The notes under the pieces are model-generated. The model was not told the DNA's origin and did not search any database. It saw only the letters and a program-made list of their open reading frames with translations. The translations under genes and the position numbers were made by a program. A stretch of 61,097 bases of DNA from Candidatus Kapaibacterium sp. (GTDB lineage Bacteria; Bacteroidota; Ignavibacteria; Kapaibacteriales; Kapaibacteriaceae): positions 1 to 61,097 of the forward strand of contig VEQR01000006.1 of assembly GCA_018883125.1 (NCBI GenBank), given 5' to 3'. This document shows, piece by piece, positions 12,801 through 43,059 of the stretch. Every line of letters starts with the position of its first letter. Position 1 is the first letter of the stretch.

Positions 12801-13717
12801 CCCTTCGTTATCGTCGAGCCATCGCGGACAGCCCCTACAGGAAATCCAGCAAAGCCGAGAGTGTCGCGAAGGATCAGATACCCTGTGGTCGAATCACCGG
12901 GATTGGGGTCTTCAAGCGCCGTCCATTCTATCGTGTTGGTGTTTGCTGACTGAGCAACAAGCGCAATCGTGGGGGCAGCTGTCCACTTCGGCTCTCGAGT
13001 CTCGCGCCAGAACCAGTGATTGATGTTCGGCACACCAAGAGCGGTGCGCGCAAGATCAAATCGATTGGGTAGTCCACGTGAGTCATTGAATCCAACAACC
13101 ACCGAATCCTTCGTGATGCCTATTCCATAGGAGCCTATCGAACGTCCACTGACACGAACTGACCGTGAGTTCGAAATGTTTGCCGAGTCCAGATTCGCCT
13201 TCGGCATCGGCAACGCATTGTATGACGGACCGGTGGGCTTATTGAAACCGAGCGCATGAACATGTGTCAGATCGCCTTTCATGACTTCAACCAGTTCACC
13301 GGTTTGGTTGATGTTCATGTCGTTATCAACACCGGGAGCAAAGTAGTACGTCGTAAAGAATCGGTTGTCCCGGGCAGACATTTCGAGATACCCATCCGCC
13401 GGGTCTTCGTCGGGAGTATAGCCGGCAGGGAACGCACGGTGCCAGAGAACGATGATCGTACCGGCGCGTAGGTTGCGCCACAGAGGAATATCTCGGAACT
13501 GAGGTCCACCCTGACGTGTGAGCTGACCAGTATTGTTGTCCGTGACGATGAACCCAACGGCATTGAGGTTGTCCGCTACCACAAGCAGTTCCGTCCACTC
13601 CAGCGACGGCTCGACCATGTTGAGATACTCACTGACGACCATCTCCTGCGACTTCATAGGAGAATGGACGGCAACGATGACAATCGCTGCCAGAAGGACA
13701 CGCACGAACGGTTTCAT
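9827..13717 (-). CDS. Large exported multi-domain protein (lamin-tail-like N-terminus, Ig-like, several ASH/choice-of-anchor-D-like repeats, cohesin-like domain, T9SS C-terminal domain)
   Basis: Signal peptide; VVSEY..EWTELLV; repeated (V/I)DFG..C...I.N.G and PF motifs; ELNYNPLLMRP cohesin-like segment; C-terminal LASGAYFVRF...VPLTITR. Confidence 0.75.
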   Translation of the reverse strand: MKPFVRVLLAAIVIVAVHSPMKSQEMVVSEYLNMVEPSLEWTELLVVADNLNAVGFIVTDNNTGQLTRQGGPQFRDIPLWRNLRAGTIIVLWHRAFPAGYTPDEDPADGYLEMSARDNRFFTTYYFAPGVDNDMNINQTGELVEVMKGDLTHVHALGFNKPTGPSYNALPMPKANLDSANISNSRSVRVSGRSIGSYGIGITKDSVVVGFNDSRGLPNRFDLARTALGVPNINHWFWRETREPKWTAAPTIALVAQSANTNTIEWTALEDPNPGDSTTGYLILRDTLGFAGFPVGAVRDGSTITKGSKIGNATVIDIRPTKLGRRMTDSSNILCGMSYSYRVYGYRYRRDDLLSVTDDTTARGRQYTDQRWAESAIITKSNPTKPLIQASRLQICPGDTVTLTTTTTNAVLYDWTVNGQSVPVGGTTRIVVRATGEYRLVIKGADGCSAISDPIVITALPAPSVEITPTGSQTICPGDSVKITVTTSAATYEWLRDGAVIPGATSSTYMAKLEGDYQVRIATSAGCPGVSATLRLRFQNVKVKLSPSSVDFGTIGQCRADTTVDVEIINEGLADVTITNASFPSGFALVSPAPGFAIKAGKRQTVRLVFAPSGPGTATGAASFLAQPCNTPIPFTVRGQRTAVSVALNKPGVDFGTYAACPTGNIRPDSTFCVTNSGTEAIVIGVPRVDPPFYLLTDIPKPVTIEPGTRFCISVMYRPLGADLDRGVIQTIGFPYTSASCQDTLRARVQGASYRPQLTVDEPAVDLGVVLKCSPRVDTVISVTNPSLVPVTVTSIVGSDISYSGGAVTIAPKTTKLLPVTITPSVASGTFSLNAKVVLQPCNDSLDVQFDGQMLNATYSQDRTEIDFGTLLLCERQTATSSFLISARGLSGLRSRLASIGAKAPFSVSVVSGQSFRDSLRVDVTFTPPSAGTFADTISYTIEPCSVVQKVVLRGVSGSPSRSTSISTSDFGTLTSGESIVRTITIANTSSVEVRVEDLDGVTTPFRIIARRPALPATLAPKQKAEIDIEYSFVDYSRRDTIRVSSRTSGNCADTVSLTLTGATVGKGTVTGLRIVAPQDASAFAGSPVTLPFDLTSGTPLDSLDLRSMVVELNYNPLLMRPESASTSLQGATVTVKENVPGQATVTIASTSPIIAMRSLFSILARTYVSDVSATVLDVDTAMAPGTIITGQDGTLTVEKECDISAGLVSLGRPIIFRVVPDGNEMLHVEFTTVTNDPVNILVGSVTGARLSVQVIATTSTDLHRMDVPIHELASGAYFVRFQHGRHVRTVPLTITR

Positions 13718-13748
13718 AGGCCTTAAGAGAGATACATGCGATTCTACG

Positions 13749-13781
13749 AAAAAGGGGCATGCGCTGGCGCATACCCCTTTT
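13749..13781 (-). terminator. Intrinsic terminator (possibly bidirectional) after the Ig-repeat protein gene
   Basis: Minus strand AAAAGGGGTATGCGC-CA-GCGCATGCCCCTTTTT. Confidence 0.8.
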
Positions 13782-13821
13782 GAACCTTCGTATTCGGTGC
13801 TGGATGAACCGGCACCTGTAC

Positions 13822-16800
13822 TTACTTGATCACCAGGACCGAACGCGTCTGAGCTTGACCATTGACGAGAGCAACGAGCTGATACGAGCCAGAGGCCAGG
13901 TCAGCAACGTTGAATGGCAGCGAATGATCGCCACTGATCATCATCGCATCGGTGATCGAGAGAACAGTTTCACCGGTCATGTTCACGAGCGTCAACACAA
14001 CATGAGATGAGCTGCTCAGCGAGAGTTGAACGCGCATGATGCCAGAACCCGGGTTTGGATTGACCGAGTAGCCGGCAACAACATCGCCGTCTTCGTCCAC
14101 GCTGACTACTCCTGGCTTGGTTGTTACGGTGGTTGTGTCGGAGAACTTATCTCCGCACTCCGAACGAACACGACACCAGTACTTACCAGCATCGGTCAGA
14201 GCGTATGCGGCCTTCGTGTAAGTTGGTGTGACCTCACCGGCAAGAGCTGCGCCGTCCTTGAACCACTGATACTGAACCGTTCCGGAGCCCGTTGCTGCAA
14301 GGGTGATGGTCAGCGGCTGTCCGACCGTTGCAGCGACCGTTGCTGGCGGCTGCTGTGTGATCGTTGTGGCGTCGCGAACGGTAACTGTTACCGTATTCGA
14401 TGTAATCGAACCACACGCCGTTGTGATCTTCACAGCATACGATCCTGCGCGAGCAACTGTCGCCGTCAACGTAAGCGTTGGCGACGTCTGACCGGCAAGA
14501 TCAGCACCATTAAAAGTCCACTGATAGGAGAGCGTACCAGCACCCGTGGCCACCACTGAAAGCGAGAAGACCTCACCGGCACATACTGTGTTGCTCATTG
14601 GTGGAGTGGTGATCGTCGGGCTGCCGGCGATGACCAGATTCACAGCACCGGAGGTATTGACGTTCTTATTGTCTTCCAGTTCGGCATAAAGCGTGTATTC
14701 ACCGATATCCTGCGTTGTTACCGGATCGATCGTCAGCGTGCTTGATTGTGCACCAGAATACCGACCGCCATCGGCAACAGGAGCCCCCTTGTACCACCAC
14801 TGAAGGCGAAGCGCACTAGTGGCAGGGTTGGCATAGGCACTTGCCTGGATGACGGCCTTCTGACCGTCGCACACTCCGATGTTGTTTGCAGCGAAGTCAA
14901 CAAAAACACCCGACGTGAGAATACGAGCTTGGCGGGAAGTGGCGGAGCCGCACACACCCACGACAGTGCAATAGTAGTCCGAGCCGAGGTCATTGGCATT
15001 GACGTTGCGGATCTCGAGTCTGTTCGAGGCCGTGCCTACGATGCGACCGTCATCGACAAGAGCAGTTTGGCCCTTGAACCACTGATAGGAGATCGCTTCA
15101 TTCGGAATTTCCGCCTCTACGGTAAGAACTGCTGTTCCACCGATCTTCACTGGCGCGTTTCGCGTCTGATTGACGATCTGCGTTGGACGTGCAACACGGA
15201 CGTGGATGTCGTTTGTGCTTGTGCTTCCGCACTGACCGTATCCCGTGAGTTCGCACCGATACACGCCAGATGTATTGAATTGGGCACGATCGATAACGAA
15301 CAAGGCGTTTGTTGCACCCTCGATCGCAATACCATTCTTGAACCACTGGTAATTGCGCACGGCTCCTGTGGTGACGGCAACCATGGAGACTCTAGCACCG
15401 ACACAAAGGTTCTGCGATGGTGGCTGGGAAACCACGCGCACGGCCTTTGCAACCACGAACGATTGCGAAACGGCACTAATCTCCGGACGATCAACTCCGA
15501 CAACGCGGACAAGACACTGGGTTGCAAACTCAACGTCTGGCACTGTCCAATTCACTGATGTTGATGTTGCCGGCACGATTCCCATTGACTGCCAAGATGC
15601 GCCGTTATTCGACGAGAACTGAACGTCGACATTGGCCATACCGCGGGCCACAAAACGAGCTGTAGATGTTGAACCTGCGCAGAGTGTATCGGCAAACACC
15701 GGAGCCGAAATCGTGATTCGTGGCGTTTGCAGCACGATTGGAGAGGCAAATCCACCAGGACCGGCAGGGTAGGCAACCAGGTCCGAAGGATTTGTCTGGA
15801 CGTTGTTCCAACGACCGTCAGTTGAAATGATCGCGTTGACAATATTACCAGTGATGGCATCACGCTCTTCAATCCGGCGAACGCCCGTTGCCAGTGTGTT
15901 CGGAATGAATGTTGCCCACGAAGAGGCTGAATTCTGACGTGATGCGTAGAAGGTCTCGGCACCTGCAACAAGGGTTCCTTGGCGCTGCACAAGAGCAACG
16001 GTCAGGGGGCGCCCTGTGCCCGCAGTGTTGTCATAAAGAAGCACGTAATTCTTCTCTGACAGCTGCGAGTTGTCGTCCACAATGCCGGTTGCCTGCGTTG
16101 AGAGCACACCGGTACGCAGCGGTGTGGATGTCTGTGCCAGCTGGTACCGATTGATCAGATTACCATTGTTGTCACCAAGAGCTACACGCCACCAGATGGT
16201 ACCGAGTTCCTGGAATGCTGCATTCGTTGACGACACAAGGTTGATCCAGATCGTCTTTGTCGTTTGACCTGGAAGAGTTGAGAACGTCGAGAACTCACCG
16301 GCGTTTGTCAGGGACTTTCCGGCAGCATAGAAGTACGTGTTATCGTTGGCGTTGTAGTGGATATTAAAGCCACCACCAGTCGATGTGAGAATCTGATCAA
16401 GGGCCAGACCCGTGTTGTAGCGATAGGTGGTGTTTGGCGTCAGATTTGTGAATGTCACGCGTGCGAAAACCGGGATCGGGAAGGCCGACACCGAGGAGTT
16501 ACACGTGCCCGATGCAGTTCGGGCATTGATGAACTGGGGCACGATGTCCGTGATCATGCTCGGAGTTGAGAATGCCGTCGAAAACGGAAGCGTCTGCTGG
16601 GCAAGTCCCGGTGCATTCACAACAAGCTGGTAGCTGCCCGCAGCGCTAACCGAAACGTTGTCGAATACGGCCACACCCGCAACCGCCTGAACGCTGGTAA
16701 CGCCTGTGAGGACACCCGTACCCGAAACGCGAGCGATAGAAACTGTTGAAGCGTAATTCTGGTCAACAGAATTGTCGGAACGATATACGGTGACCGTGAT

Positions 16801-17883
16801 CGGATTGAGTGGAACACCAACATAACCGCTCGTCGTTGCACCGCTGATGGCGAAATACGCCGGTGGACCATTTACGGTGAGTGCTGATGAGAGACCCTGC
16901 GTGAGTACCTGGCCGAACGTCGTAAAGGCACGAAGGGTAACACCCGTTTCGGCCACGCTGTAGTTTACTGCTGTAAGATCAACAAAGCTGCTACCTGCTG
17001 GGATGGTTCCGGAGATGGTTCCCGAAACAGAGCCGGTACCGGAGTTGACGGCAATCTGAACACCGGTTGACGTCGTGAGGTTCTTAGCCGCACCCAGAGC
17101 ATCCACTGCGCGCACACGAAGACCGAATGCCGTGTTTTGCGATGGCGACGACGGCACGATGTTCTCAATGGCAAGGTTAGTAGCCGTTCCCACAGTCGAT
17201 TGAGACGAAACCGTCAGGTCATCAAACGTGATTCCCGGACGGCTACCCGAAGAAAAGACCGGTGCCTGGTAGTAGACCCAGCGAAGCTGAACAAATGCCT
17301 GGTTTTCGCAGATGGTTGGCAGAGTTGCTGTGATCGTGCGGAGCGTCGAAACTCCGGAAGCACTCAACGGTGCGACGTATTCAACCGGTACGCCATTGGA
17401 CAGCACATTGGTCCAGGCACTCGTCGTATTAAGACGGTATTGGAGGCGCAATGCATATGGGCGTGTTCCCGAACTGTTTACGGTCGATGTCCACGTGACA
17501 CCGATCTGCGCGCGTCCAACTGTATTTAGCGACAGCAGGGCAGCGCCCACGAAGTTACAGTTACACACCAGTGTGCCAGTATTAATGAACCCAAGACCAC
17601 CTGTACCCAGTCCACTAATGCGAGCGCCACTCGTGAGGTTATACGCGCAGTTCCAGTCGGATGTTGGAAGGGCATCTGATGGCGCATCGATGTCTGCCAC
17701 CATGTGGAACATCATAGCAGTGGGATACGTACCGGCCGGATTGGTGTTCAACCAGTCCGTCAACGTGTAGTTACCACTGCTAAGTGACCACGTGGTAAGG
17801 GGCTGGGTCTGACCATAGACGAGGCCGGACATCAGCACCAAGGTGCACAACAGCGAGATTGAAAATCGTGTGAATGTTTTCAT
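13822..17883 (-). CDS. Large exported protein with tandem I-set-like Ig domains and a T9SS C-terminal domain
   Basis: Likely start MKTFTRF at 17883 (signal peptide), not 17946. Repeated YQW(F/Y)K.G...L.I...D.G.Y.C motifs; C-terminal VSVDE..NPNP..LASGSY..VLVIK. Confidence 0.8.
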   Translation of the reverse strand: MKTFTRFSISLLCTLVLMSGLVYGQTQPLTTWSLSSGNYTLTDWLNTNPAGTYPTAMMFHMVADIDAPSDALPTSDWNCAYNLTSGARISGLGTGGLGFINTGTLVCNCNFVGAALLSLNTVGRAQIGVTWTSTVNSSGTRPYALRLQYRLNTTSAWTNVLSNGVPVEYVAPLSASGVSTLRTITATLPTICENQAFVQLRWVYYQAPVFSSGSRPGITFDDLTVSSQSTVGTATNLAIENIVPSSPSQNTAFGLRVRAVDALGAAKNLTTSTGVQIAVNSGTGSVSGTISGTIPAGSSFVDLTAVNYSVAETGVTLRAFTTFGQVLTQGLSSALTVNGPPAYFAISGATTSGYVGVPLNPITVTVYRSDNSVDQNYASTVSIARVSGTGVLTGVTSVQAVAGVAVFDNVSVSAAGSYQLVVNAPGLAQQTLPFSTAFSTPSMITDIVPQFINARTASGTCNSSVSAFPIPVFARVTFTNLTPNTTYRYNTGLALDQILTSTGGGFNIHYNANDNTYFYAAGKSLTNAGEFSTFSTLPGQTTKTIWINLVSSTNAAFQELGTIWWRVALGDNNGNLINRYQLAQTSTPLRTGVLSTQATGIVDDNSQLSEKNYVLLYDNTAGTGRPLTVALVQRQGTLVAGAETFYASRQNSASSWATFIPNTLATGVRRIEERDAITGNIVNAIISTDGRWNNVQTNPSDLVAYPAGPGGFASPIVLQTPRITISAPVFADTLCAGSTSTARFVARGMANVDVQFSSNNGASWQSMGIVPATSTSVNWTVPDVEFATQCLVRVVGVDRPEISAVSQSFVVAKAVRVVSQPPSQNLCVGARVSMVAVTTGAVRNYQWFKNGIAIEGATNALFVIDRAQFNTSGVYRCELTGYGQCGSTSTNDIHVRVARPTQIVNQTRNAPVKIGGTAVLTVEAEIPNEAISYQWFKGQTALVDDGRIVGTASNRLEIRNVNANDLGSDYYCTVVGVCGSATSRQARILTSGVFVDFAANNIGVCDGQKAVIQASAYANPATSALRLQWWYKGAPVADGGRYSGAQSSTLTIDPVTTQDIGEYTLYAELEDNKNVNTSGAVNLVIAGSPTITTPPMSNTVCAGEVFSLSVVATGAGTLSYQWTFNGADLAGQTSPTLTLTATVARAGSYAVKITTACGSITSNTVTVTVRDATTITQQPPATVAATVGQPLTITLAATGSGTVQYQWFKDGAALAGEVTPTYTKAAYALTDAGKYWCRVRSECGDKFSDTTTVTTKPGVVSVDEDGDVVAGYSVNPNPGSGIMRVQLSLSSSSHVVLTLVNMTGETVLSITDAMMISGDHSLPFNVADLASGSYQLVALVNGQAQTRSVLVIK

Positions 17884-17933
17884 ATGCGAGGCCGCATGAT
17901 GTGAATAGAGGGTTTCTGCCGAATGCATTTGCG

Positions 17934-17942
17934 GCAAAACTA
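17934..17942 (-). promoter_or_regulatory. Putative -7 promoter box TAGTTTTGC for the Ig-repeat gene
   Basis: Exact TAnnTTTG match immediately after the upstream terminator. Confidence 0.6.
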
Positions 17943-17944
17943 TC

Positions 17945-17988
17945 AAAAAAAGAGCCCCCTGACATACCCAAATAGGTTACCAGGGGGC
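17945..17988 (-). terminator. Intrinsic terminator after the M3 peptidase operon
   Basis: Minus strand GCCCCCTG...CAGGGGGC followed by TCTTTTTTT. Confidence 0.8.
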
Positions 17989-34333: not shown

Positions 34334-34627
34334 ATGGGCGAGGTCAATCGAGAGATTGCCGCACTGGTGATGTATTCCCTTACCATGTCACTTGGTATTG
34401 CTGCACGAACCCGGAGGATGTCGTTCGGACGGTGGCATCATGCTCTGTATGCGTTGACGTGTGTCGTCACAATGTGGAGTGTCGTGGGCGGACCATTTCC
34501 AGCCCATGTGCCCTGTGTTGTGATTCTCGCAATTCTTCCAGCAACCCGACCGCGTATCTCACGTCGACATGATCTGTTGGCAATCGCGGGACTTGTGTCT
34601 TTCGTCACTCTCGTTTTGACCATATGA
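34334..34627 (+). CDS. Small hypothetical membrane protein
   Basis: Hydrophobic 97-aa ORF, ATGA-coupled to the next gene; WHHALY and HD motifs. Confidence 0.55.
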   Translation: MGEVNREIAALVMYSLTMSLGIAARTRRMSFGRWHHALYALTCVVTMWSVVGGPFPAHVPCVVILAILPATRPRISRRHDLLAIAGLVSFVTLVLTI

Positions 34628-34965
34628 AGAATCTGCCGCGCATTGTATCGATAACTCTTGCCGCCATGTTCGCAGGGTTTGTCACGCTGCAGTTCAACGA
34701 CGTTGATGCTTGGTTGTGGGTACTTGCCTATGGTGTTGCTTCCGTTCTATGTCTTTGCAATCTTTCGAAGCGGCTCGATCGCGTGGTTAACCGAATGTCC
34801 GCGCTCCTGGGCTTTGCCTACGCGCTGTGGGCAATTGCATTATTCCGACAGACGAGCGGACGCTGGTGGGATGGTGAGATCGAACGTGAGGTAGGGGGCT
34901 TGGCGATCACAGCTCTTGCCATGCTGATGCTGAATTATTTTACGCGTCGAGTGTCACGTTTTTGA
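34624..34965 (+). CDS. TMEM220-family membrane protein
   Basis: LQFNDVDAWLWVLAY and EIEREVGGL match the QxNDPD..W..xY / ExxRExxGL pattern. Confidence 0.8.
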   Translation: MKNLPRIVSITLAAMFAGFVTLQFNDVDAWLWVLAYGVASVLCLCNLSKRLDRVVNRMSALLGFAYALWAIALFRQTSGRWWDGEIEREVGGLAITALAMLMLNYFTRRVSRF

Positions 34966-34986: not shown

Positions 34987-35733
34987 ATGATGTCGTCTTC
35001 GTGTATCCTCCTCGTCGCCTTTGCCGCCGCCACCGTGTGGCAGTGCCCGGGCATTGCACAACCGCTCCGCCAGGTGAGCATCGCTGCCGTATTTGGAAGC
35101 CCCCTTCCCGATGACGGCTCGCACCGCATTTCTGTTCGTTGGTACAACGATCCGTTTCAGTCGACACCTCTGTGGCAAGAGGACGTTGACGCAGATATCG
35201 TTGGCGGCCGTTGCGAACTGGTACTTGGCGGCACGGTACCGCTTCCAGATACCGTCCTTCGGGGTAACCGGATATTCGTGGGATACGCTGTAGATGGGGA
35301 AGCAGAACGTCGACCAAGAATAGAGCTGTATGCCACCGGAGTTTCACTCCATGCAGGCTACGCTGACATGGCGGCTCGATTAGATCCGCGGGCAACTGGT
35401 CTCGTCACATCACTCAACGAACTTTCCGGCCCCGTGTCACTTGTCGGAACTGACGGGGTCTCCGTTGTTCGAAAGGGCAGCACTCTCGTTGTTTCAGCAC
35501 CGACGTCTTCCGCAGAGAAAGGACGCGTTATAGGAAATGGTGTTGCCTCGGAGTATCGTGTGAGACCTGCTCGAAAGCTTTTATCAGATGCTCGTGTCAC
35601 GTTTCATACGATATCTCCCACTACGACATTACTGACACAGCTCATCATCGATACGACGTTGAACGAACTTGTCTTTCGTGTATCGGCACCCTTGCTTCCG
35701 GAGGAGTGCATTGACTGGTCGATCGACCCCTGA
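34987..35733 (+). CDS. Exported fibre-like protein A (MAT/tail-fibre-type N-terminal domain, VTSLN neck, C-terminal beta tip)
   Basis: Signal peptide; PL.DG.H...WY...PLWQE...GG...LG...PL...VDG..E..PR..L...A; VTSLNELSGPVSL; ends IDWSIDP. Confidence 0.6.
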   Translation: MMSSSCILLVAFAAATVWQCPGIAQPLRQVSIAAVFGSPLPDDGSHRISVRWYNDPFQSTPLWQEDVDADIVGGRCELVLGGTVPLPDTVLRGNRIFVGYAVDGEAERRPRIELYATGVSLHAGYADMAARLDPRATGLVTSLNELSGPVSLVGTDGVSVVRKGSTLVVSAPTSSAEKGRVIGNGVASEYRVRPARKLLSDARVTFHTISPTTTLLTQLIIDTTLNELVFRVSAPLLPEECIDWSIDP

Positions 35734-35849
35734 TCGTAACGCCTCAAGAGCACCCTTCCTAGTCAGCTGTGTCTCTTTACGTCCCGTTAGCATGCAAGAA
35801 CCACATGGTTCACCAATCATCTTTTATCACATTGTTAAGCGAGGTCTTT

Positions 35850-36749
35850 ATGCGCCCCATCTATCACAGCCTAATGGTATTCCTTGGCTTTCTTTTCATT
35901 TCCATTGGTATGCGAGCTCAGAGCATTACCACTGGTACGCTCCAACTTCGGAATGCTCAGCCGTCCACGGTCGGACTCACCATTCCTGGAACCGGAGTTA
36001 CATCCTATTCGCTGGTGCTGCCACCCCTCATCGGAGAATCAGGACAGACTCTGACGGTTCAAACGGTAACCGGCACCACAGCCACTTTGGGTTGGAGTAG
36101 CACAAACTTCTGGAGTCTGCTTGGCTCGGACATCACCGCTGGGGGCACTGCAACAGGGCAACAGTATCTTGGTACGAAGAATGCCCAGGACCTGGTGATC
36201 GCCGCTAACGCCACCGAAGGCATCCGCATCATTGGCGTTGCCGGTGCAAGTCAGGGTTGGATTGGTATCGGAACATCCTCACCCAAGGCACCGATCGACC
36301 TGGCGCGAACGGTGCTTCTGTCCAACTCCGGAGCTGCAACCGAACTGCGCTTTGCTGAGCCCAGTGCTGCAGGCACGAACTACTCGGCGTTCAAAGCGGC
36401 CGATCAGACGGCTGACATCACATACACGCTTCCCGTCAGCGCTCCGGCCAGCAACGGTATGGTACTCTCTGCCACCACAACCGGTGTGATGAGCTGGCGC
36501 AGTGCTATCGCAGACGTGCCGCGCGGACTCTTTGCACCGACGGCCGGCAACTATATCCACACGATAACGGTAGGGCAGGACATCCCGACAGGATCTATTC
36601 CGATCGTTACAATGGTGAATGCTGCAGGTACGACGATCGCAGCATCAGTTACGGCAATTGATGCAACGGCGGACACGTTCACGGTGGAAACATCTGTTCC
36701 ACTGGCCTCATCTGATCGCATCTCTTGGATGGTCATTCCACCGATGTAA
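35850..36749 (+). CDS. Exported fibre-like protein B (tail-fibre-like shaft motifs, C-terminal beta tip)
   Basis: GAGG before ATG 35850; signal peptide ending AQS; YSLVLP...GQTL...LGW, WSLLG, LGT.NAQDL...N..E.IRI, IGIGTSSP, YTLP...GMVL...MSW. Confidence 0.65.
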   Translation: MRPIYHSLMVFLGFLFISIGMRAQSITTGTLQLRNAQPSTVGLTIPGTGVTSYSLVLPPLIGESGQTLTVQTVTGTTATLGWSSTNFWSLLGSDITAGGTATGQQYLGTKNAQDLVIAANATEGIRIIGVAGASQGWIGIGTSSPKAPIDLARTVLLSNSGAATELRFAEPSAAGTNYSAFKAADQTADITYTLPVSAPASNGMVLSATTTGVMSWRSAIADVPRGLFAPTAGNYIHTITVGQDIPTGSIPIVTMVNAAGTTIAASVTAIDATADTFTVETSVPLASSDRISWMVIPPM

Positions 36750-36781
36750 GTCCCCTCTAACACCTCCAACACCACCGATGT

Positions 36782-38209
36782 ATGAACATCCGAATTCGTC
36801 TCATTTCCCTGATGGTGATTCCCGTTGCCGGTATTTGTGCAACGTCGCAGACGTTCAGTACCAGCCAGATCGACAACAAGACACCCAATCCAATGGTGAT
36901 CTCCAACAGGTCCAGCAATGCACTCCCACTTCGGATTACCACCGGACCGTCAATGACACGTGCACTTGAGATCGGCCAGTCAGGAAACACGTGGCTACTC
37001 GGGCCCTTGGGCATTGGAAATGGTGTTGGCACAGCGCCCTTCGAGGCTGTGCGCATCGGCAGTCTTGCGGCCAGTGGTGGACGTGGTCTGACCATCACGC
37101 TTGATGCAACTTCAACTGCCACAGGACTGCTTGTGCGCGACGTTGGAAACTCGGGGAGTAATGACGCAGGTATCGTGATCTCAAGTCAGTCGAACGGAAT
37201 GGGAACCGGACTTCGTATAGGTGGGCCAACCGGAACTGGACGTCCAACACTTGGTACCGGAATCGATGTGACGGGTGGAACCGGAATACGGTACAATGCA
37301 CTGACCGCGGGGAATGGCGTGGCCATCGACATCGGCGGATCAACACCTCCGAGGCGGGGCATGGAGATCACTGCTTCCGGTTCACAGCACATCGGATTGG
37401 TTGCCCGTGCAAACACCACGGGTATGGGGATCATCGGCGTTTCTCAATCCTCCAGCTATGAGACGCTACCATTTTCTGAACGCACCGGGGTGCGAGGACA
37501 TGCCGCAACCAACTCGGGCATCGGTGCCGACACGATCATCGGCGTGATGGGCACAACGCAGCGAGGAGGAAGTGGCAGCACGCAGATCGTTTCAATCGGC
37601 GTCGTTGGAAATGCTGAGACCCTAGCATCCGGCAACGCCGGAACCACGCTTGGCATTTACGGTACGGCTACGTCGGCGGCAGCCGGCGTAGCCGTTGCCA
37701 TTGGTGGCGGCTTTCGAACGGATACCGGACAGATCGCGCTTCTGACCATTGGCGGCGATGTGATCCTCGGTGGTGAGCGGCCCCGTCTTCCGCCAATCTT
37801 CCAGATGTCCACTTTTCGAGAGATGCCGACACGCAATCGAACCTATGTCCATCATCTTCTATCGAGTGGGATGTCTCGCTTCTCCGGAGTAGCACTGACT
37901 CCAACACCGAACATCATTCTGCCCGCAGCCATTCCCGCGCTTGTTACCATCGGAGCCGGATCGGTGATCCGGTTGCAGGCTGATGTTAATGGGAGTGTTG
38001 TCGGTGGCATTCGCACCGATGCCGCCGACCGTTTGCTGACGCTTGTCGTAACTCAGGGGAACGTCACTCTCGTCAGTGAGAATCCAAATGTGGAAGCCGC
38101 AGATCGACTGCGTCTGAAGAATGGCGTTGCCCTGCAGCTCGGCGCCGATGACATGATACAACTCTGGTACGATCAGGAGATCCAGCGATGGCGATGCTAT
38201 TCGTTCTGA
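36782..38209 (+). CDS. Exported Gly/Thr/Ser-rich beta-solenoid-like protein C with a tailspike-like C-terminal domain
   Basis: Signal peptide; repeated G-hydrophobic-x-G units (IGVMG, IGVVG, LGIYG); C-terminal GGI...LTL...VTL...DRL...LWYD...RW. Confidence 0.6.
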   Translation: MNIRIRLISLMVIPVAGICATSQTFSTSQIDNKTPNPMVISNRSSNALPLRITTGPSMTRALEIGQSGNTWLLGPLGIGNGVGTAPFEAVRIGSLAASGGRGLTITLDATSTATGLLVRDVGNSGSNDAGIVISSQSNGMGTGLRIGGPTGTGRPTLGTGIDVTGGTGIRYNALTAGNGVAIDIGGSTPPRRGMEITASGSQHIGLVARANTTGMGIIGVSQSSSYETLPFSERTGVRGHAATNSGIGADTIIGVMGTTQRGGSGSTQIVSIGVVGNAETLASGNAGTTLGIYGTATSAAAGVAVAIGGGFRTDTGQIALLTIGGDVILGGERPRLPPIFQMSTFREMPTRNRTYVHHLLSSGMSRFSGVALTPTPNIILPAAIPALVTIGAGSVIRLQADVNGSVVGGIRTDAADRLLTLVVTQGNVTLVSENPNVEAADRLRLKNGVALQLGADDMIQLWYDQEIQRWRCYSF

Positions 38210-40260
38210 TGTGTATGGTCGCTGATGATTCGGTCCAGTTTGTGCAAAGCACCTGGGCGTGGAGTTCCGAAGCCTGTGGGAGTTCAATCACGGTACAACA
38301 GTCTCGATGGTTTGAGGCGGGGGACCACGTGCTGATCCATCGACCGACTTGCGACCATGAAGGAGATAGGCTTTCACATAACGTCGGCGAATGGTCTTGG
38401 AACGTCATCGATACCATCATCGGTCAGAGGATATACCTCACGCATTCGCTGCAGGAGCCCCTTAGCCGAGCGCGGCACTTGCAGATCATCCGTGCAGTAA
38501 CACCTGATGATAAGCGATTGCGCCGGCGCATCGTCTCAAGGCCGTGGAATGGTCTGCATGGTGGTGTCGTGGCCCTGTGGAGCGATGACACCGTTCACAT
38601 CGAATCACCGATATCCGCAACAAGCACCGGCTTTTACCAACCAACATTTGATTGGAACTCCTCCGATACCACGGCACGATTTGATGAACAGCCAACAGCG
38701 GTGCTGCCCGGCGATGGAATGGGTCCATGTAGCGTTCCACTGGTCAGCATCGACAGTCTTTCGTCGTGGGGACGTGGCGGCTTGAGTGGTCGCGCGCACA
38801 ATTCCGGTGGAGCCGGGGGGGCCTCAGCTGGACGCGGTGGCAACGGTGGATCAACATCTTCCGCATTCTCTCCGATCAACTCAATGCAAGGGGCTTCTGC
38901 TCGCCCCCTAGATGACGGCACCCGACTCGTGTTCGGATCCTCCGGAGGTGGGGGGCATGGCAATGACCTCGATGGCGGCCGTGGTGGTCGCGGAGGAGGA
39001 ATCATTGTGATACGTGCTCGACATATTCAATTTCACACCGGGAGTATTGTGAGTGCCGACGGCACCAATGGTCACGATGCCAGCCACGATGGCTCCGGCG
39101 GCGGTGGAGCTGGCGGCATGGTTCTTCTTGATGCTGAATCGGTCTCCGGTGATGGTTTGATCACCGCACGCGGTGGTCACGGTGGAACGTCCCGCTCAAC
39201 ACTGTTTCTCTGCGGACCGGGCGGGGGAGGCGCCGGAGGTAGCGTCATGTCAACCTCCGCCCTGCCCGCATCTGTACGCTGTATCGTAAGCGGTGGAGCA
39301 GCTGGTGCATCTTCGGCAATCAGCTCGGATTCGACGGCCGACCGAGGTGCGACGAGCGGAGGAGATGGTACATCAATCCATCCCATTGCACGTTGGAAGC
39401 CCCCTACCGCGGGGATCCCACGCGTGCGACTACGACAGGCTGACACGATGGTTGCCTTCGGATCGACAACGCTTTTGTGGACGGAGGGTGCAACGGCAAC
39501 CCAATGGCTCGACAACGTCCGTACCCTTGGCAGAGACTCAGTATCGACACCACCCATTGAGCGGGGACGGTGGTTTCGCGCACGGATGACACGTGCCGAC
39601 GGATGTGTGATCCTTGACAGTGTATACGTGCGCCCGTCACCGCAGGCGCGTACGCTGGTTGCCAGCATTGGCGATGCCCATGCACGCCCCGGCGACACGG
39701 TGGACGTCTATCTCAGCGTTCGTGCGACGTTTGCCCCACAACGAACGATCGAGGGGATTGTCTACGTATCAACCCACTCATACGTGCTCTTGCCGATAAC
39801 ATCATCGGGGTATGTGTCCGGAACTCGAACGCACATCAAGTTTCCCTTTCGACTCGGCGCAACGGCAGCAAGTACCTACCGGCGCGATCAACTGCGGGCG
39901 GCCCTGGGAGACTCCGCCTCAGTGCAGTTTCGGATTGACAGTGTCATCGTGAATGATTCATCGATTACTGTGCAGAAACGTCCAGGGCGCTTTACGCTGG
40001 ACGATCTCTGCGCAACAGACGGACGTGTGCGACTGTTCAGCCCTCAAATCGATGTGGCATTTCGTGGTCGAACCATCACGACTTCTGCCAATGAACTTTT
40101 CATCAGTGACGTCCTCGGCCGCATCCTTGCCCACCATAGCGCCAATGATAGTAAGGGGCTTGTCGTTACACTTGACCCCACCCTACGAGGACTGATCTTT
40201 ATTGCGGTGGTCGATGGGGAGTATATGCGGACGGTTCCATGGTGGATAAGCGCCGACTAA
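38188..40260 (+). CDS. Glycine-rich exported protein with cohesin-like and degenerate T9SS-like C-terminus
   Basis: F.AGDHVLI, WNGLHGGVVAL, long GGxGG tracts, ARPGDTV cohesin-like start, ISDVLGR..G.IFI C-terminus. Confidence 0.7.
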   Translation: MAMLFVLMCMVADDSVQFVQSTWAWSSEACGSSITVQQSRWFEAGDHVLIHRPTCDHEGDRLSHNVGEWSWNVIDTIIGQRIYLTHSLQEPLSRARHLQIIRAVTPDDKRLRRRIVSRPWNGLHGGVVALWSDDTVHIESPISATSTGFYQPTFDWNSSDTTARFDEQPTAVLPGDGMGPCSVPLVSIDSLSSWGRGGLSGRAHNSGGAGGASAGRGGNGGSTSSAFSPINSMQGASARPLDDGTRLVFGSSGGGGHGNDLDGGRGGRGGGIIVIRARHIQFHTGSIVSADGTNGHDASHDGSGGGGAGGMVLLDAESVSGDGLITARGGHGGTSRSTLFLCGPGGGGAGGSVMSTSALPASVRCIVSGGAAGASSAISSDSTADRGATSGGDGTSIHPIARWKPPTAGIPRVRLRQADTMVAFGSTTLLWTEGATATQWLDNVRTLGRDSVSTPPIERGRWFRARMTRADGCVILDSVYVRPSPQARTLVASIGDAHARPGDTVDVYLSVRATFAPQRTIEGIVYVSTHSYVLLPITSSGYVSGTRTHIKFPFRLGATAASTYRRDQLRAALGDSASVQFRIDSVIVNDSSITVQKRPGRFTLDDLCATDGRVRLFSPQIDVAFRGRTITTSANELFISDVLGRILAHHSANDSKGLVVTLDPTLRGLIFIAVVDGEYMRTVPWWISAD

Positions 40261-40261
40261 C

Positions 40262-41764
40262 TCATCTGGTCTTGTTGATGAGCAGTAGTGCACTCATGCG
40301 GCCTTGGCGCCAGCCGGCCGACTGTTCTTCGGTGATGCGGCCCGGGCCGATGGATTCGTTTCCGAGGAGTACGTCAATGTCACCGTCGCCATCAACGTCT
40401 GCGGCATCACTTACCAGCCAACGGCCGCGATCGGCCATGGGCAACGACCACATTGTAACTGCTGGTGTGAACGCTGCAGTTTCCAATCGCAGAAGGTCGA
40501 AGTCGCCGCGCTCGAGTCGGGGGAAATAGCTGTAGGAGAGCATATCCTGCAGGCCATCAAGGTCAAAGTCCCGAACAATCGCTCCATAGGCTCCGTCAAA
40601 AGGACGGAATGTCGTGTCCGTTACGCGTCCGAGCTTGTCGAGGCGGAACACATAGCTGCCGTGATAGGGCTTGTATGGCGGCATCAGATAATCGCCATTG
40701 TCTCCCGCAGTTACCAGCAAATCATCTTTTCCATCGCGGTCTACGTCTGCAAAACTGAAGGACGATGAGCCGTAACTCGGCGGAAAGGTGATGATCTCTC
40801 GAGATTCAAATCGCCCCTTACCCTTGTTGATATGCACGAAGATCCCTTCACGGGCCTGGGCCATCAATACGACGATGTCCTTGCGACCGTCGCCATTGAC
40901 ATCACGGATTTCTGTGCGGATCGCTCCCGGCTGTGCGACGAGCTCATGATACAACCAGCGCTTTCCTCGACGCTCGAACCAGCCGAGACGACCTAGTAGA
41001 TTTCCGAACTCACAGACCAGCAGATCATCCGAACCATCGCCATTGAAGTCTTCAACGCTGATGTGCGTTGGACGTCGGAGGGAATCAATGATGCGATTCA
41101 CCGTATAGGTGTCTCCCTTCCACTGCACCGCCACAACAGCACCTACGGCGGAATCGTGCGGGAGTAGCTTTCCCATATCCGTAACGTACCACGTTGATCC
41201 ACGGATAGCGATCGAACTCACCGGACCGCCGATGGCAATGGTCGTTAGGATCTTACCGGCACTGCTATAGACATTCATGGAGCCACTCATTGCATCTGCC
41301 GTGATGAACCTCCGGGAGAGGGCATCAAAACGCGCGAGAATCGTCATGGGCATACAGGCATCATCACAGAACACCGGAGTCGCTTCAAACACTGTGCTTG
41401 GTCCCGTTACCTTCGGCATGGGTGTGGATGGCAACTCTTCCGGGGCATTGTCGATGTACCAATTCGCAACAGCGAACCACTCATCCTCGGTCATCGTCGG
41501 CACGGACGGATACATCGCCTGCAGATCATGCGGCATGAGTTCGCGGCTTGGATTCTGATCCAGACCAATGTATTGACGCATCATCGGGAAGACCTTCGTC
41601 AGCCACGTCGAACGATCGAGATGCTCGGGAAGGGGCTTCACATGACACGTCTGACAGTACCGGTCGGCAAGCTTCTTGCCGTCATCCTCGACGTGTGCAG
41701 CGAGAGAAAGCATCCCGCACAGCAGCGCCGTGAGCGCACCACCAACGAGGAAGACTCTTCTCAT
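40262..41764 (-). CDS. Exported monoheme cytochrome c plus FG-GAP/VCBS beta-propeller protein
   Basis: Signal peptide; CQTCH; five DxxxDGxxD motifs; start 41764 ATGA-coupled to purB. Confidence 0.85.
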   Translation of the reverse strand: MRRVFLVGGALTALLCGMLSLAAHVEDDGKKLADRYCQTCHVKPLPEHLDRSTWLTKVFPMMRQYIGLDQNPSRELMPHDLQAMYPSVPTMTEDEWFAVANWYIDNAPEELPSTPMPKVTGPSTVFEATPVFCDDACMPMTILARFDALSRRFITADAMSGSMNVYSSAGKILTTIAIGGPVSSIAIRGSTWYVTDMGKLLPHDSAVGAVVAVQWKGDTYTVNRIIDSLRRPTHISVEDFNGDGSDDLLVCEFGNLLGRLGWFERRGKRWLYHELVAQPGAIRTEIRDVNGDGRKDIVVLMAQAREGIFVHINKGKGRFESREIITFPPSYGSSSFSFADVDRDGKDDLLVTAGDNGDYLMPPYKPYHGSYVFRLDKLGRVTDTTFRPFDGAYGAIVRDFDLDGLQDMLSYSYFPRLERGDFDLLRLETAAFTPAVTMWSLPMADRGRWLVSDAADVDGDGDIDVLLGNESIGPGRITEEQSAGWRQGRMSALLLINKTR

Positions 41765-43059
41765 TGGCTCAACCCGCACCGCTCGAAGATCACATCCACG
41801 TTCTTCAGCATACGGTTCGGGTCGAAGATTGCGTCGAGTTCTTCGGACGAGATGTGCGACATCAGATCGGCGTCTTCACTGAGTGTTTGTCGAAGCGGCA
41901 GGCGTGTTTCCCAGGTGCGCATTGCGTTGCGTTGCACCATGCGATAGGCGTCCTCACGGGTGATGTCCTTGCGCACCAGAGCCAGCATAACCGACTGGGA
42001 ATAGGGAAGTCCGCTGGTAAGCTCGAGATTGCGCTTCATATTCTCGGGATACACAACAAGTCGATCCACGAGCCCCGTTGCCAGATGCAGCATGTAATCC
42101 AGCGTGATGGTCGAGTCCGGACAGATCACCCGCTCAACAGAACTGTGCGATATATCGCGCTCGTGCCAGAGCGCATTGTTCTCGATGGCTGCCATGGCGT
42201 TGCCACGAAGCAGACGCGCCAGACCGCAGATACGCTCGCTGACGATTGGATTGCGCTTATGCGGCATGGCCGACGAACCCTTTTGTCCGGGAGAGAAATA
42301 CTCCTCGGCTTCAAGGACTTCCGTCCTCTGCAAATGGCGCACCTCAATGGCGATTTTCTCAAGGAATGCGCCGATGATGGCCAGTGTGCTCATGTACTCT
42401 GCATGACGGTCTCGCTGGATAACCTGCGTGCTGACGGGGGCAGGCTGAAGACCAAGTTTTTCGCAGACATATTCTTCGACGGCAGGTGAGAGGTGCTCGA
42501 ACGTTCCAACGGCGCCGGAGATCATTCCAACGCTGATCGTTGCCAGTGCATGCTCCATGCGTGTGATGCTGCGGCGGCATTCCTCATGCCACAGCGCAAG
42601 CTTCAAACCGAACGTCGTTGGCTCAGCGTGAATACCGTGTGAGCGTCCGATACAGACGGTGTTCTTGAACTCAATCGCTCGACGATGAAGGATAGCCTGC
42701 AGGTTCTTCAGGTCTTCCAGCAGTAGAACGCCTGCCTGCTTGAGTTGTACGGCAAGGCATGTATCAAGCACATCGCTCGACGTCATGCCAAGATGAATAA
42801 ACCGCGAGGCTGGTCCGACGTACTCTGCAACATTGGTCGTAAAGGCGATCACATCGTGTTTCGTCGTCTCTTCGATCTCAAGGATTCGGTCCACATCGAA
42901 CGATGCCTTGCTGCGGATCTCGGCAACGGCATCCTTGGGGATCACACCAAGTTCTGCCTGAGCTTCGCAGGCCAGGATCTCAATTTCAAGCCAAATGCGG
43001 TACTTGTTCTCGTCAGACCAGATGGCACCCATGTCCGGGCGCGTGTAGCGTTGAATCAT
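41761..43059 (-). CDS. purB: Adenylosuccinate lyase
   Basis: MIQRY, HDVIAF, HLGMTSSD, GRSHGIHAEPTT, GSSAMPHKRNP. Confidence 0.97.
   Translation of the reverse strand: MIQRYTRPDMGAIWSDENKYRIWLEIEILACEAQAELGVIPKDAVAEIRSKASFDVDRILEIEETTKHDVIAFTTNVAEYVGPASRFIHLGMTSSDVLDTCLAVQLKQAGVLLLEDLKNLQAILHRRAIEFKNTVCIGRSHGIHAEPTTFGLKLALWHEECRRSITRMEHALATISVGMISGAVGTFEHLSPAVEEYVCEKLGLQPAPVSTQVIQRDRHAEYMSTLAIIGAFLEKIAIEVRHLQRTEVLEAEEYFSPGQKGSSAMPHKRNPIVSERICGLARLLRGNAMAAIENNALWHERDISHSSVERVICPDSTITLDYMLHLATGLVDRLVVYPENMKRNLELTSGLPYSQSVMLALVRKDITREDAYRMVQRNAMRTWETRLPLRQTLSEDADLMSHISSEELDAIFDPNRMLKNVDVIFERCGLSQ

Follow-up and report, generated by a model that had tools for sequence, protein, structure and literature searches.

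Introduction

Mosaic adhesive trimers (MATs) are prey-binding fibres of the bacterium Bdellovibrio bacteriovorus (Caulton et al. 2024, PMC10769870). As set out in that paper, a MAT is marked by a conserved N-terminal domain of ~130 residues, rich in beta structure, that begins directly after the signal peptide, a base for which no solved structure exists and which is presumed to bind an unidentified surface element; a further signature is a beta-helical shaft with the capping-loop motif V-G-G/N-pi-x-x-P-x-x-x-L. The paper also lists MATs of 417-854 residues from bacteria of the Fibrobacterota-Chlorobiota-Bacteroidota (FCB) group (Supplementary Table S3), likens the tip of Bd0726 to the XD1 domain of CBA120 TSP4 (7REJ; Supplementary Table S1), and leaves open both the target of the base domain and the route by which the fibres reach the cell surface (PMC10769870). 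Here we describe a locus of four genes, A to D, in a 61,097-nucleotide stretch of DNA from Candidatus Kapaibacterium sp. (assembly GCA_018883125.1, contig VEQR01000006.1, positions 1-61,097 of the forward strand), the whole of which we call the window. These genes may encode a small set of phage-tail-fibre-like envelope proteins, assignable to the non-S74 branch of the MAT superfamily, in which the parts of a fibre are distributed over separate, conserved genes.

A preliminary description had presented the locus as a candidate new system, a label that does not survive comparison with the literature. The kind of system is already known, since MAT fibres of FCB bacteria are in print, and the family to which we assign the N-terminal domain of A numbers 61,040 representative proteins at E<=1e-3 (32,269 at E<=1e-10). 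What sets the locus apart from known MATs is the split between a base-bearing stub and baseless proteins, a conserved AgmC_N-like partner putatively tagged for the type IX secretion system (T9SS), and the very small size of A. Like the non-S74 MATs of Bdellovibrio, A has a signal peptide directly before a beta-rich base and is a predicted trimer. B shares their GIGT-type capping-loop shaft, and the operon as a whole shares their interchangeable beta-sandwich tips and their chromosomal, multi-copy and phage-free character. Furthermore, the tips of C and Bd0726 have in common a likeness to CBA120 TSP4 (7rej), which ranks third for C. In contrast to Bdellovibrio, the parts are split over separate genes, with A a 248-residue stub without a shaft as against proteins of 626-1959 residues; B and C have no base; the conserved set includes a putatively T9SS-tagged protein; the likeness to the Bdello_MAT_N model stays under the cut-off of that model; and the organism is no known predator, a literature search having found no paper that calls Kapabacteria predators in its title or abstract. 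Where MATs end in an S74 domain or its NS74 alternative, we find two types of beta-sandwich tip with tailspike-like nearest folds and no S74.

Other described systems offer partial parallels. Phage tailspikes such as CBA120 TSP4 (7rej), Pam1 (7eea) and LKA1 gp49 (4ru4) have C-terminal or XD-type beta-sandwiches resembling the tips of A, B and C, and multi-tailspike phages carry several fibre proteins side by side of which one alone has the attachment module, as here. Unlike those phages, this locus has no virion genes and its fibre proteins have Sec signal peptides; sequence identity is 9-20%, Z is at most 8.7, and the proteins are known here from genes and models. The N-domain of Myxococcus xanthus AgmC resembles both part of D and a D-like protein of a second family, f17, in each case below the 275-bit cut-off, whereas D ends in a putative T9SS tail, a system that Myxococcus to our knowledge lacks. 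In Flavobacterium, sprCDBF is a T9SS adhesin operon with a dedicated outer-membrane partner. The present loci are similar in combining a T9SS-tagged protein with fibre genes and, at sister loci and in f17, also with an outer-membrane beta-barrel or OmpA-type protein; they differ in that the fibre proteins have no T9SS tail and that no PorP/SprF family match was seen. Literature searches found no split base/baseless arrangement with a T9SS partner (supplementary file 2 of the MAT paper lay outside the search), and nothing relevant on T9SS together with trimeric tail fibres or on MAT fibres with T9SS partners.

Four genes form a conserved core-genome operon

As first described, the four genes lie in a row on the plus strand, at 34987-40260: A at 34987-35733 (248 residues), B at 35850-36749 (299 residues), C at 36782-38209 (475 residues) and D at 38188-40260 (690 residues). 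The start of B was corrected from that in the list of open reading frames (ORFs; 35769-36749) because the shorter form agrees with the length of most of 105 relatives in a collection of 5.8 billion proteins. A and B are separated by 116 nucleotides and B and C by 32, while C and D overlap by 22; in orthologous loci the spacer between A and B is mostly 40-60 nucleotides and ends in a GGAG-like ribosome-binding site. A consensus scan detected no terminator-like site within the operon.

The genes had been expected to co-occur in relatives, and they do. Full-length orthologues of A were aligned from 21 of 24 genomes of the same genus, the remaining three genomes being 92%, 85% and 69% complete. 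Over the 20 of these 21 loci that were examined (G019 was omitted), A and B are present in 20/20, C in 18/20 and D in 17/20, with each miss at a contig end; at locus L044 the match to D is weak, though a 663-residue ORF is present. The flanks are shared as well, with ftsY upstream and purB downstream in 16 of the 20 loci each. In a sample of 151 genomes of the class, full-length B, C and D were found in all nine other genomes of the window's own family, to which full-length B and C are confined, and B adjoins C. Gene set and order are thus kept over three genera of the family, and A-B-C-D is a core-genome operon, not an island.

The statement that the window holds no phage structural genes also stood up. 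A Pfam scan of its other 39 ORFs (E<=1e-5) found no family of capsid, sheath, tube or baseplate proteins or of integrases; these ORFs are housekeeping and envelope genes (folE, rnhB, ftsY, purB, tsaB, mfd, lptD, a SusC/D pair and others), and GC content is flat over the window at 0.52-0.59. Nor was a Peptidase_S74 match found in A-D or in the whole genome, which is 99% complete, in keeping with the original impression that no S74 chaperone domain was visible. A-D matched no Pfam family at E<=1 and no PADLOC anti-phage defence family at E<=0.01. Against PHROGs they gave weak matches only, all to families of unknown function, and scans of IMG/VR yielded a single partial match to B and nothing related to C.

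Signal peptides had been proposed for the first three products. In Bacteroidota, Gln follows the signal-peptidase site, and we applied a heuristic rule (not SignalP) that asks for a hydrophobic 10-mer among residues 1-45 together with a small residue followed by Gln. The proposal was upheld by this rule for A (21/21 aligned sequences), B (40/42) and C (18/18). Among the 17 aligned D sequences, 15 have the hydrophobic stretch and just 6 the small-residue/Gln motif.

Protein A is a predicted trimer with a MAT-type base

The putative signal peptide of A (residues 1-24, cut between Ala and Gln) precedes a beta-rich domain of MAT_N type (residues 26-135; 35062-35391, plus strand), delimited from paralogues, hhalign and an AlphaFold2 model with a predicted local distance difference test score (pLDDT) of 78-88. 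Columns D43, G44, Y53, E65, G74, G81, E107 and R111 are conserved in the orthologue alignment; the motifs initially quoted for A, and likewise those for B and C, all turned out to be conserved alignment columns. The same genome encodes four paralogues of the first ~175 residues of A, each at the start of a longer protein (368, ~429, >1250 and 2419 residues), and this answers an earlier call for a paralogue count. The longest carries DUF5907 repeats and, by eye, YadA-like repeats and a GIGTTAP motif.

It is through these paralogues that A can be tied to the MATs. Aligned with them by hhalign, the A orthologues gave a probability of 99.9% (E 4e-34, 160 columns; reversed control 1.3%), which places the N-terminal domain of A in the MAT_N family. 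Three paralogues match the NCBIfam model NF053851, Bdello_MAT_N (E 3.4e-7 to 0.022), and at E<=0.01 so do 23 of 39 A orthologues and paralogues taken together (best 5.6e-11). Profile comparison therefore identifies the domain, as had been suggested from its motifs, as a divergent member of the MAT_N family, the link being transitive via the paralogues. In the 150 matches listed for the family profile, the domain starts within the first 80 residues of proteins that are 166-4680 residues long.

Between base and tip lies a neck, ATGLVTSLNELSGPVSLVG (residues 136-160; 35392-35466, plus strand), in which G138, V140, S142, N144, E145 and G148 are invariant, and which forms the predicted three-fold interface together with a helix at residues 119-131. 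The AlphaFold2 monomer model (pLDDT 75) is confident for the N-terminal beta domain (residues 30-115) and for a C-terminal beta-sandwich (residues 177-247, ~90); confidence is low at residues 118-150, a stretch that spans the invariant neck (neck pLDDT <50). Modelling of trimers had been proposed as a check. Carried out on A alone, with three copies of residues 26-248, it gave a score of 0.79 against 0.17 for the best of three controls; this score is a measure of model confidence, and in a calibration made with two copies and other alignments, so that its counts are rough, 20 of 30 proteins with structures solved as one-chain pairs attained that mark, as did 1 of 23 known as single chains. Contact agreement between runs was at least 80% and partner pLDDT at least 81. 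The interface, which spans residues 114-173 and coincides with the low-confidence stretch of the monomer model, brings equivalent residues of different chains into contact at 123, 126, 129, 140 and 169, as on a three-fold axis. As there is no solved structure of a MAT base domain, the trimer model had none to copy. A is thus a predicted homotrimer, and the model supports trimerisation.

The C-terminal tip of A (residues 175-248; 35509-35730, plus strand; pLDDT 87-94) is of a type, here type 1, that A and B have in common. Its nearest folds in VIA-align are the cyanophage Pam1 tailspike (7eea_A, Z 8.1, rmsd 2.0 Å over 65 residues), followed by LKA1 gp49 (4ru4) and the K64-1 depolymerase (9k4a), both at Z 6.8. 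In its modelled form the tip therefore resembles phage tailspike C-terminal domains as its nearest relatives in shape, at Z values that the tool's own note calls borderline. Comparison with phage fibres, likewise suggested at the outset, thus succeeded for the tips of A and C; a Foldseek search with the full model of A was unproductive in the PDB (see Discussion) and in BFVD gave just phage matches of low TM (about 0.2).

One further likeness concerns the neck. Profile positions 126-171 of A (window ~35360-35500) gave a sub-threshold match, E 0.0035, to the PDB entries 7zoh/7zoi, which carry the label glycoside hydrolase family 18; the match may reflect a trimerisation or stalk element in common. 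Beyond it, the sequence profile of the N-domain matched no PDB chain.

Proteins B and C are built from fibre modules without a base

B begins with a putative signal peptide, cut between A23 and Q24. The mature protein has two Y.L.LP...G..L...W units (residues 25-82 and 163-216) on either side of a GIGTSSP shaft (W.L.G...YLGT...IGIGTSSP; residues 88-160), and ends in a type 1 tip (residues 222-299; 36513-36746, plus strand). Conserved columns fall in both units (Y53/L57/P58...W82 and Y192/L194/P195...W216) and in the shaft (G139, G141, T142 and P145). The profile of B matches solved MAT fibre tips at their capping loops, in Bd2439 (8ol4/8onf) at E 2.3e-4 and in Bd3182 (8ojn) at E 0.037, and the part aligned to these loops is the stretch IGIGTSSPKAPIDL. 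Relationship between the tips was seen by hhalign, in which the tails of A and B aligned with a probability of 82% (E 1e-5) and the full-length alignments with 47% (E 2e-4). No MAT_N base domain was matched in B or C. By these sequence comparisons B has a MAT-type capping-loop shaft and no base, and the view of B and C as anchorless proteins made of fibre modules is borne out. The first 150 residues of B are paralogous to baseless proteins encoded on two other contigs of the genome, C72 and C190, and its middle module recurs often in giant proteins of other families.

C is of a different build. After a putative signal peptide cut between S22 and Q23 come a glycine-rich body (residues 58-372; 22% glycine over residues 100-330) and a type 2 tip (residues 373-475; 37898-38206, plus strand) that ends LWYDQEIQRWR, with W462, Y463, D464, W470 and R471 conserved. 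The structural model is confident for the C-terminal domain, residues 373-475. C had been described as a glycine-rich beta-solenoid with an L.YD...RW end; glycine content and end motif hold, and for the solenoid we make no claim, residues 19-372 having pLDDT 30-50.

Of the six best VIA matches of the C tip among 48,161 PDB chains, five (Z 8.7 to 5.8) are phage structures of tailspikes, spikes or baseplates: the Solidus gp83 tailspike (24qj_A, Z 8.7), CBA120 TSP4 in two entries (7rej at Z 6.5 and another at Z 6.2), a capsid spike and a baseplate. The remaining match, 6o38_A (Z 8.7), bears no title beyond 'a chaperone-substrate complex'; we take it for a phage fibre bound to the chaperone that assembles it. 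Searched against BFVD, the model of C gave 24 matches at E<=1e-3, the best (E 9.3e-6, 28% identity, 106 columns) to a marine phage protein with collagen repeats; the sequence profile of C found nothing meaningful among PDB chains. As modelled, the C tip resembles phage fibre domains and is of a type distinct from the A/B tip, to which tail alignments by hhalign show no relationship.

The body and the tip of C also occur separately in giant fibre proteins of other families, where the tip often stands right after a B-type module. Look-alikes of C in a protein atlas (viral clusters, PTL_trimer, T4 gp9/10 N) are a lead only. A Pfam scan of P0103, which is listed with PTL_trimer (PF26696), found no family, PF26696 not being among the models scanned. 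A further fibre locus of the same genome, at C130:7973-12545, is without a MAT_N domain; a 265-residue protein there combines a shaft module of B type with a tip of C type, and a 1263-residue protein with B-type modules comes next.

Protein D is AgmC_N-like with a probable, divergent type IX secretion tail

D had been characterised as glycine-rich with an end resembling a T9SS C-terminal domain (CTD), and both parts of that characterisation are supported. Residues 61-373 (38368-39306, plus strand) match positions 100-412 of NF047640, the model of the Myxococcus AgmC N-domain, at E 4e-44 and 151 bits, below the cut-off of 275, and glycine makes up 28% of residues 195-400. The putative, divergent CTD occupies residues 620-690 (40045-40257, plus strand). 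In hhalign the last ~72 residues align end to end with 50 T9SS CTDs of the same genome (probability 85%, E 6e-6), as against at most 2.2% for four controls, one of them D reversed and the others the C-terminal tails of A, B and C. On these profile matches D may be described as an AgmC_N-like glycine-rich protein with a divergent, CTD-like tail.

The organism was correctly taken for an FCB bacterium with a T9SS. Relatives of B bear names that assign it to the Kapabacteria/Kapaibacterium group of Bacteroidota. SprA_N was found over its cut-off on contig C124, and the genome holds 115 Por_Secre_tail matches of which 62 exceed the cut-off. The N-terminal module of D is multi-copy, with three further copies in the genome and matches in 49 of the 151 class genomes.

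The split arrangement recurs at other loci

Two further loci of the same genome repeat the design. On contig C190 (56535-60963; locus L010 535-4963) a five-gene sister operon, all on the minus strand, encodes an OMP_b-brl barrel of 235 residues, a T9SS-tagged protein of 193 residues with a FlgD_ig-like tail, a MAT_N stub with a tip (348 residues), and two baseless proteins of 361 and 334 residues whose N-termini both resemble that of B. All five genes were found in three of four relatives examined; in the fourth the contig ends early. On the short contig C72 (2-4790; locus L011), also on the minus strand, the end of a T9SS-tagged protein is accompanied by a MAT_N stub of 429 residues and two baseless fibre proteins, the last of which is truncated where the contig stops and contains YadA-like NT..G repeats. 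This set was present in both relatives examined.

A rearranged version occurs in family f17, with the same order in all three loci compared, L073 (G058:C8), L074 (G141:C33) and L075 (G133:C123): a D-like protein (975-990 residues), an OmpA-type outer-membrane protein (barrel plus OmpA domain, ~690 residues), a MAT_N fibre protein (530-582 residues), a baseless protein that starts with AQ followed by VPSLVTQQLRLS, and a small protein with an A/B-type tip (243-281 residues). The D-like protein passes the cut-offs of both T9SS tail models (Por_Secre_tail), and it matches NF047640 at positions 35-405 with E 1.9e-63 and 215 bits, again below 275. Taken together, the two further loci in the genome itself and the f17 operon lend support, at the level of sequence, to the idea of a split system with which the preliminary description had begun.

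Two side observations belong to these loci. The C190 operon is followed by a gene for a protein with a cytochrome-c motif. On contig C5 (20550-30000; L009 2551-12001) the 2419-residue MAT_N fibre, the one with DUF5907 repeats, precedes a T9SS-tagged protein of 297 residues, the start of which reads ..S.GAV...GT.GQ..IG......GFWY, a motif that by eye is also found in the small protein of C190; next comes an open-ended ORF with a poly-proline linker that looks OmpA-like by eye.

Discussion

We are able to propose an outline of how the four products may work. A would be exported by Sec and would trimerise through its short helix and intertwined neck, giving a stub that combines a MAT-type base, which in Bdellovibrio presumably lies at the cell surface, with a tailspike-like tip. 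B and C would be exported fibre proteins drawn from the same pool of modules as A, neither with a base of its own, B combining the GIGT capping-loop shaft with the tip of A, and C a glycine-rich body with a second type of tip. D would be carried to the surface by the T9SS. We infer that the four would jointly form an adhesive or recognition fibre set on the cell surface, with B and C attached by way of A and/or D, and with D, or the small T9SS-tagged proteins of the sister loci, linking the fibres to the outer membrane. That the products are functionally coupled in such a set is the reading that we favour, with moderate confidence.

Several observations weigh against it. The connection to MATs is indirect: A itself has no match to NF053851 at E<=1, the matches of its relatives, where printed, cover model positions 4-80 of 162 and score below the 60-bit cut-off (best 30.2), and no protein of the genome passes that cut-off; the link to the Bdellovibrio MATs consequently holds at the superfamily level only. 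The structural comparisons are similarly limited. In fold searches the N-domain of A is a generic Ig/FN3-like sandwich with Z at most 6.9, the tips reach Z 8.7 at most, in a range that the tool calls common, and Foldseek found nothing in the PDB for the model of A at E<=1e-3; the caveats given above for the trimer score and for the body of C belong here as well. As to export and anchoring, hhalign of their tails found no T9SS tail in A, B or C, which also have no lipobox, and the tail of D scores below the cut-offs of Pfam PF18962 and NCBIfam TIGR04183. The three other D-like genes of the genome sit on contigs without a MAT_N gene, and of the 13 D-like loci in f17 five have no MAT_N gene listed nearby and one lies at a contig end. 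Finally, tandem fibre genes can arise by duplication or module shuffling without any physical partnership.

This last point leads to an alternative that we consider unlikely but take most seriously, namely that the locus is an array of independent surface adhesins, generated by local duplication and shuffling, each exported and anchored alone, with D an unrelated T9SS cargo. Module shuffling evidently takes place, the shaft unit of B and the body and tip of C recurring in giant proteins elsewhere; D-like genes are multi-copy, and those away from MAT_N genes make up three of the four in the genome. Bdellovibrio MAT genes, too, may stand next to one another, as judged by the consecutive numbers bd0704/0705 and bd3266/3267 in Table S1 of the MAT paper (PMC10769870). 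Against independence, B and C, being without the base domain, cannot count as duplicates of A; set and order have been kept over three genera; and the combination of a stub, two baseless proteins and a CTD protein recurs at two loci and, rearranged, in f17. In 17 genomes of f17, moreover, 7 of 13 D-like loci have a MAT_N gene within 10 kb on the same strand, as against an expected share of ~7% (our own rough estimate, from ~10 MAT_N genes in 3 Mb), a comparison that is not a statistical test, the genomes being related and not independent.

Within the favoured reading of a coupled fibre set, one can picture a single multi-subunit fibre, although we hold this version to be rather doubtful. By analogy with multi-tailspike phages and their branched complexes, the A trimer alone would have the MAT base, the baseless trimers of B and C would dock end to end or as branches, and D (or the T9SS-tagged protein of a sister locus) would be the surface element bound by the base. 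A heterotrimer of A, B and C was also considered and dropped, as their lengths of 248, 299 and 475 residues differ and the C tip is unrelated to the A/B tip.

Gliding motility or surface translocation offers another explanation, in which D would be an AgmC-type component and A-C moving adhesins like SprB of Flavobacterium. Gliding Bacteroidota deliver SprB via the T9SS, which this organism has, and the N-domain model of AgmC, an adventurous gliding motility protein of Myxococcus, is matched by D (E 4e-44) and by the f17 D-like protein (E 1.9e-63). Both of those matches are below 275 bits, however, A-C have no T9SS tail, and the Pfam scan found no gld or spr gene in the window. The AgmC name itself carries little weight, since a literature search found no paper on the mechanism of AgmC in Myxococcus. 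We judge this explanation improbable.

It is very improbable that A-C are instead monomeric periplasmic or outer-membrane-associated beta-sandwich proteins that look like fibres and nothing more. The two domains of A do fold confidently as a monomer, A-C have no known signal for export across the outer membrane, and the fold matches are of middling Z. These points are opposed by the trimer model of A (0.79 against 0.17 for controls), by the disorder of its conserved neck in the monomer model, and by the capping-loop motif that B shares with the solved trimeric beta-helices of MATs.

It is scarcely credible that the genes are left over from a prophage tail-fibre module, a tailocin or a contractile injection system: the tips and shaft do resemble phage tailspike and fibre parts, and the look-alikes of C in the protein atlas, a lead only, are mostly viral clusters, whereas the other 39 ORFs of the window include no phage structural or integrase family, GC content is flat, A, B and C have signal peptides, scans of IMG/VR gave nothing related to C and one partial match to B, and a position between ftsY and purB, each in 16/20 loci, contradicts such an origin by synteny.

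The preference for a coupled fibre set bears on a question wider than one genome. The MAT_N family is very large and almost unstudied outside Bdellovibrio. The Kapabacteria loci separate the base (A) from the baseless B and C beside a putatively T9SS-tagged partner, to which the sister loci add an outer-membrane barrel, and so provide small, tractable candidates for the partners in anchoring and export. Should the partnership be real, a rule of general scope for the display of phage-derived fibres by Bacteroidota would follow, and should D be an anchor, the export or anchoring of MAT fibres in Bacteroidota would be tied to type IX secretion. If there is no partnership, the locus is one more conserved adhesin-like operon.

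Neighbouring genes

Directly upstream of A, at 34624-34965 on the plus strand, lies a gene for a small membrane protein of the TMEM220 family (h113; Pfam E 1.7e-14), which was found at 15/20 orthologous loci. The small membrane proteins found upstream, h200, h108 and h113, were excluded from the system, their presence beside A being variable. On the other side, a convergent gene at 40262-41779 (minus strand) encodes a 505-residue protein with FG-GAP/VCBS-type repeats (Pfam) and, by eye, an N-terminal CxxCH haem-binding motif; it adjoins D in 16/20 loci and is possibly, though not necessarily, connected with the operon. Farther away, at 9827-17946 (minus strand), two large surface proteins of 1296 and 1374 residues with Ig-like domains are encoded next to one another, the second with a T9SS sorting domain over the cut-off.

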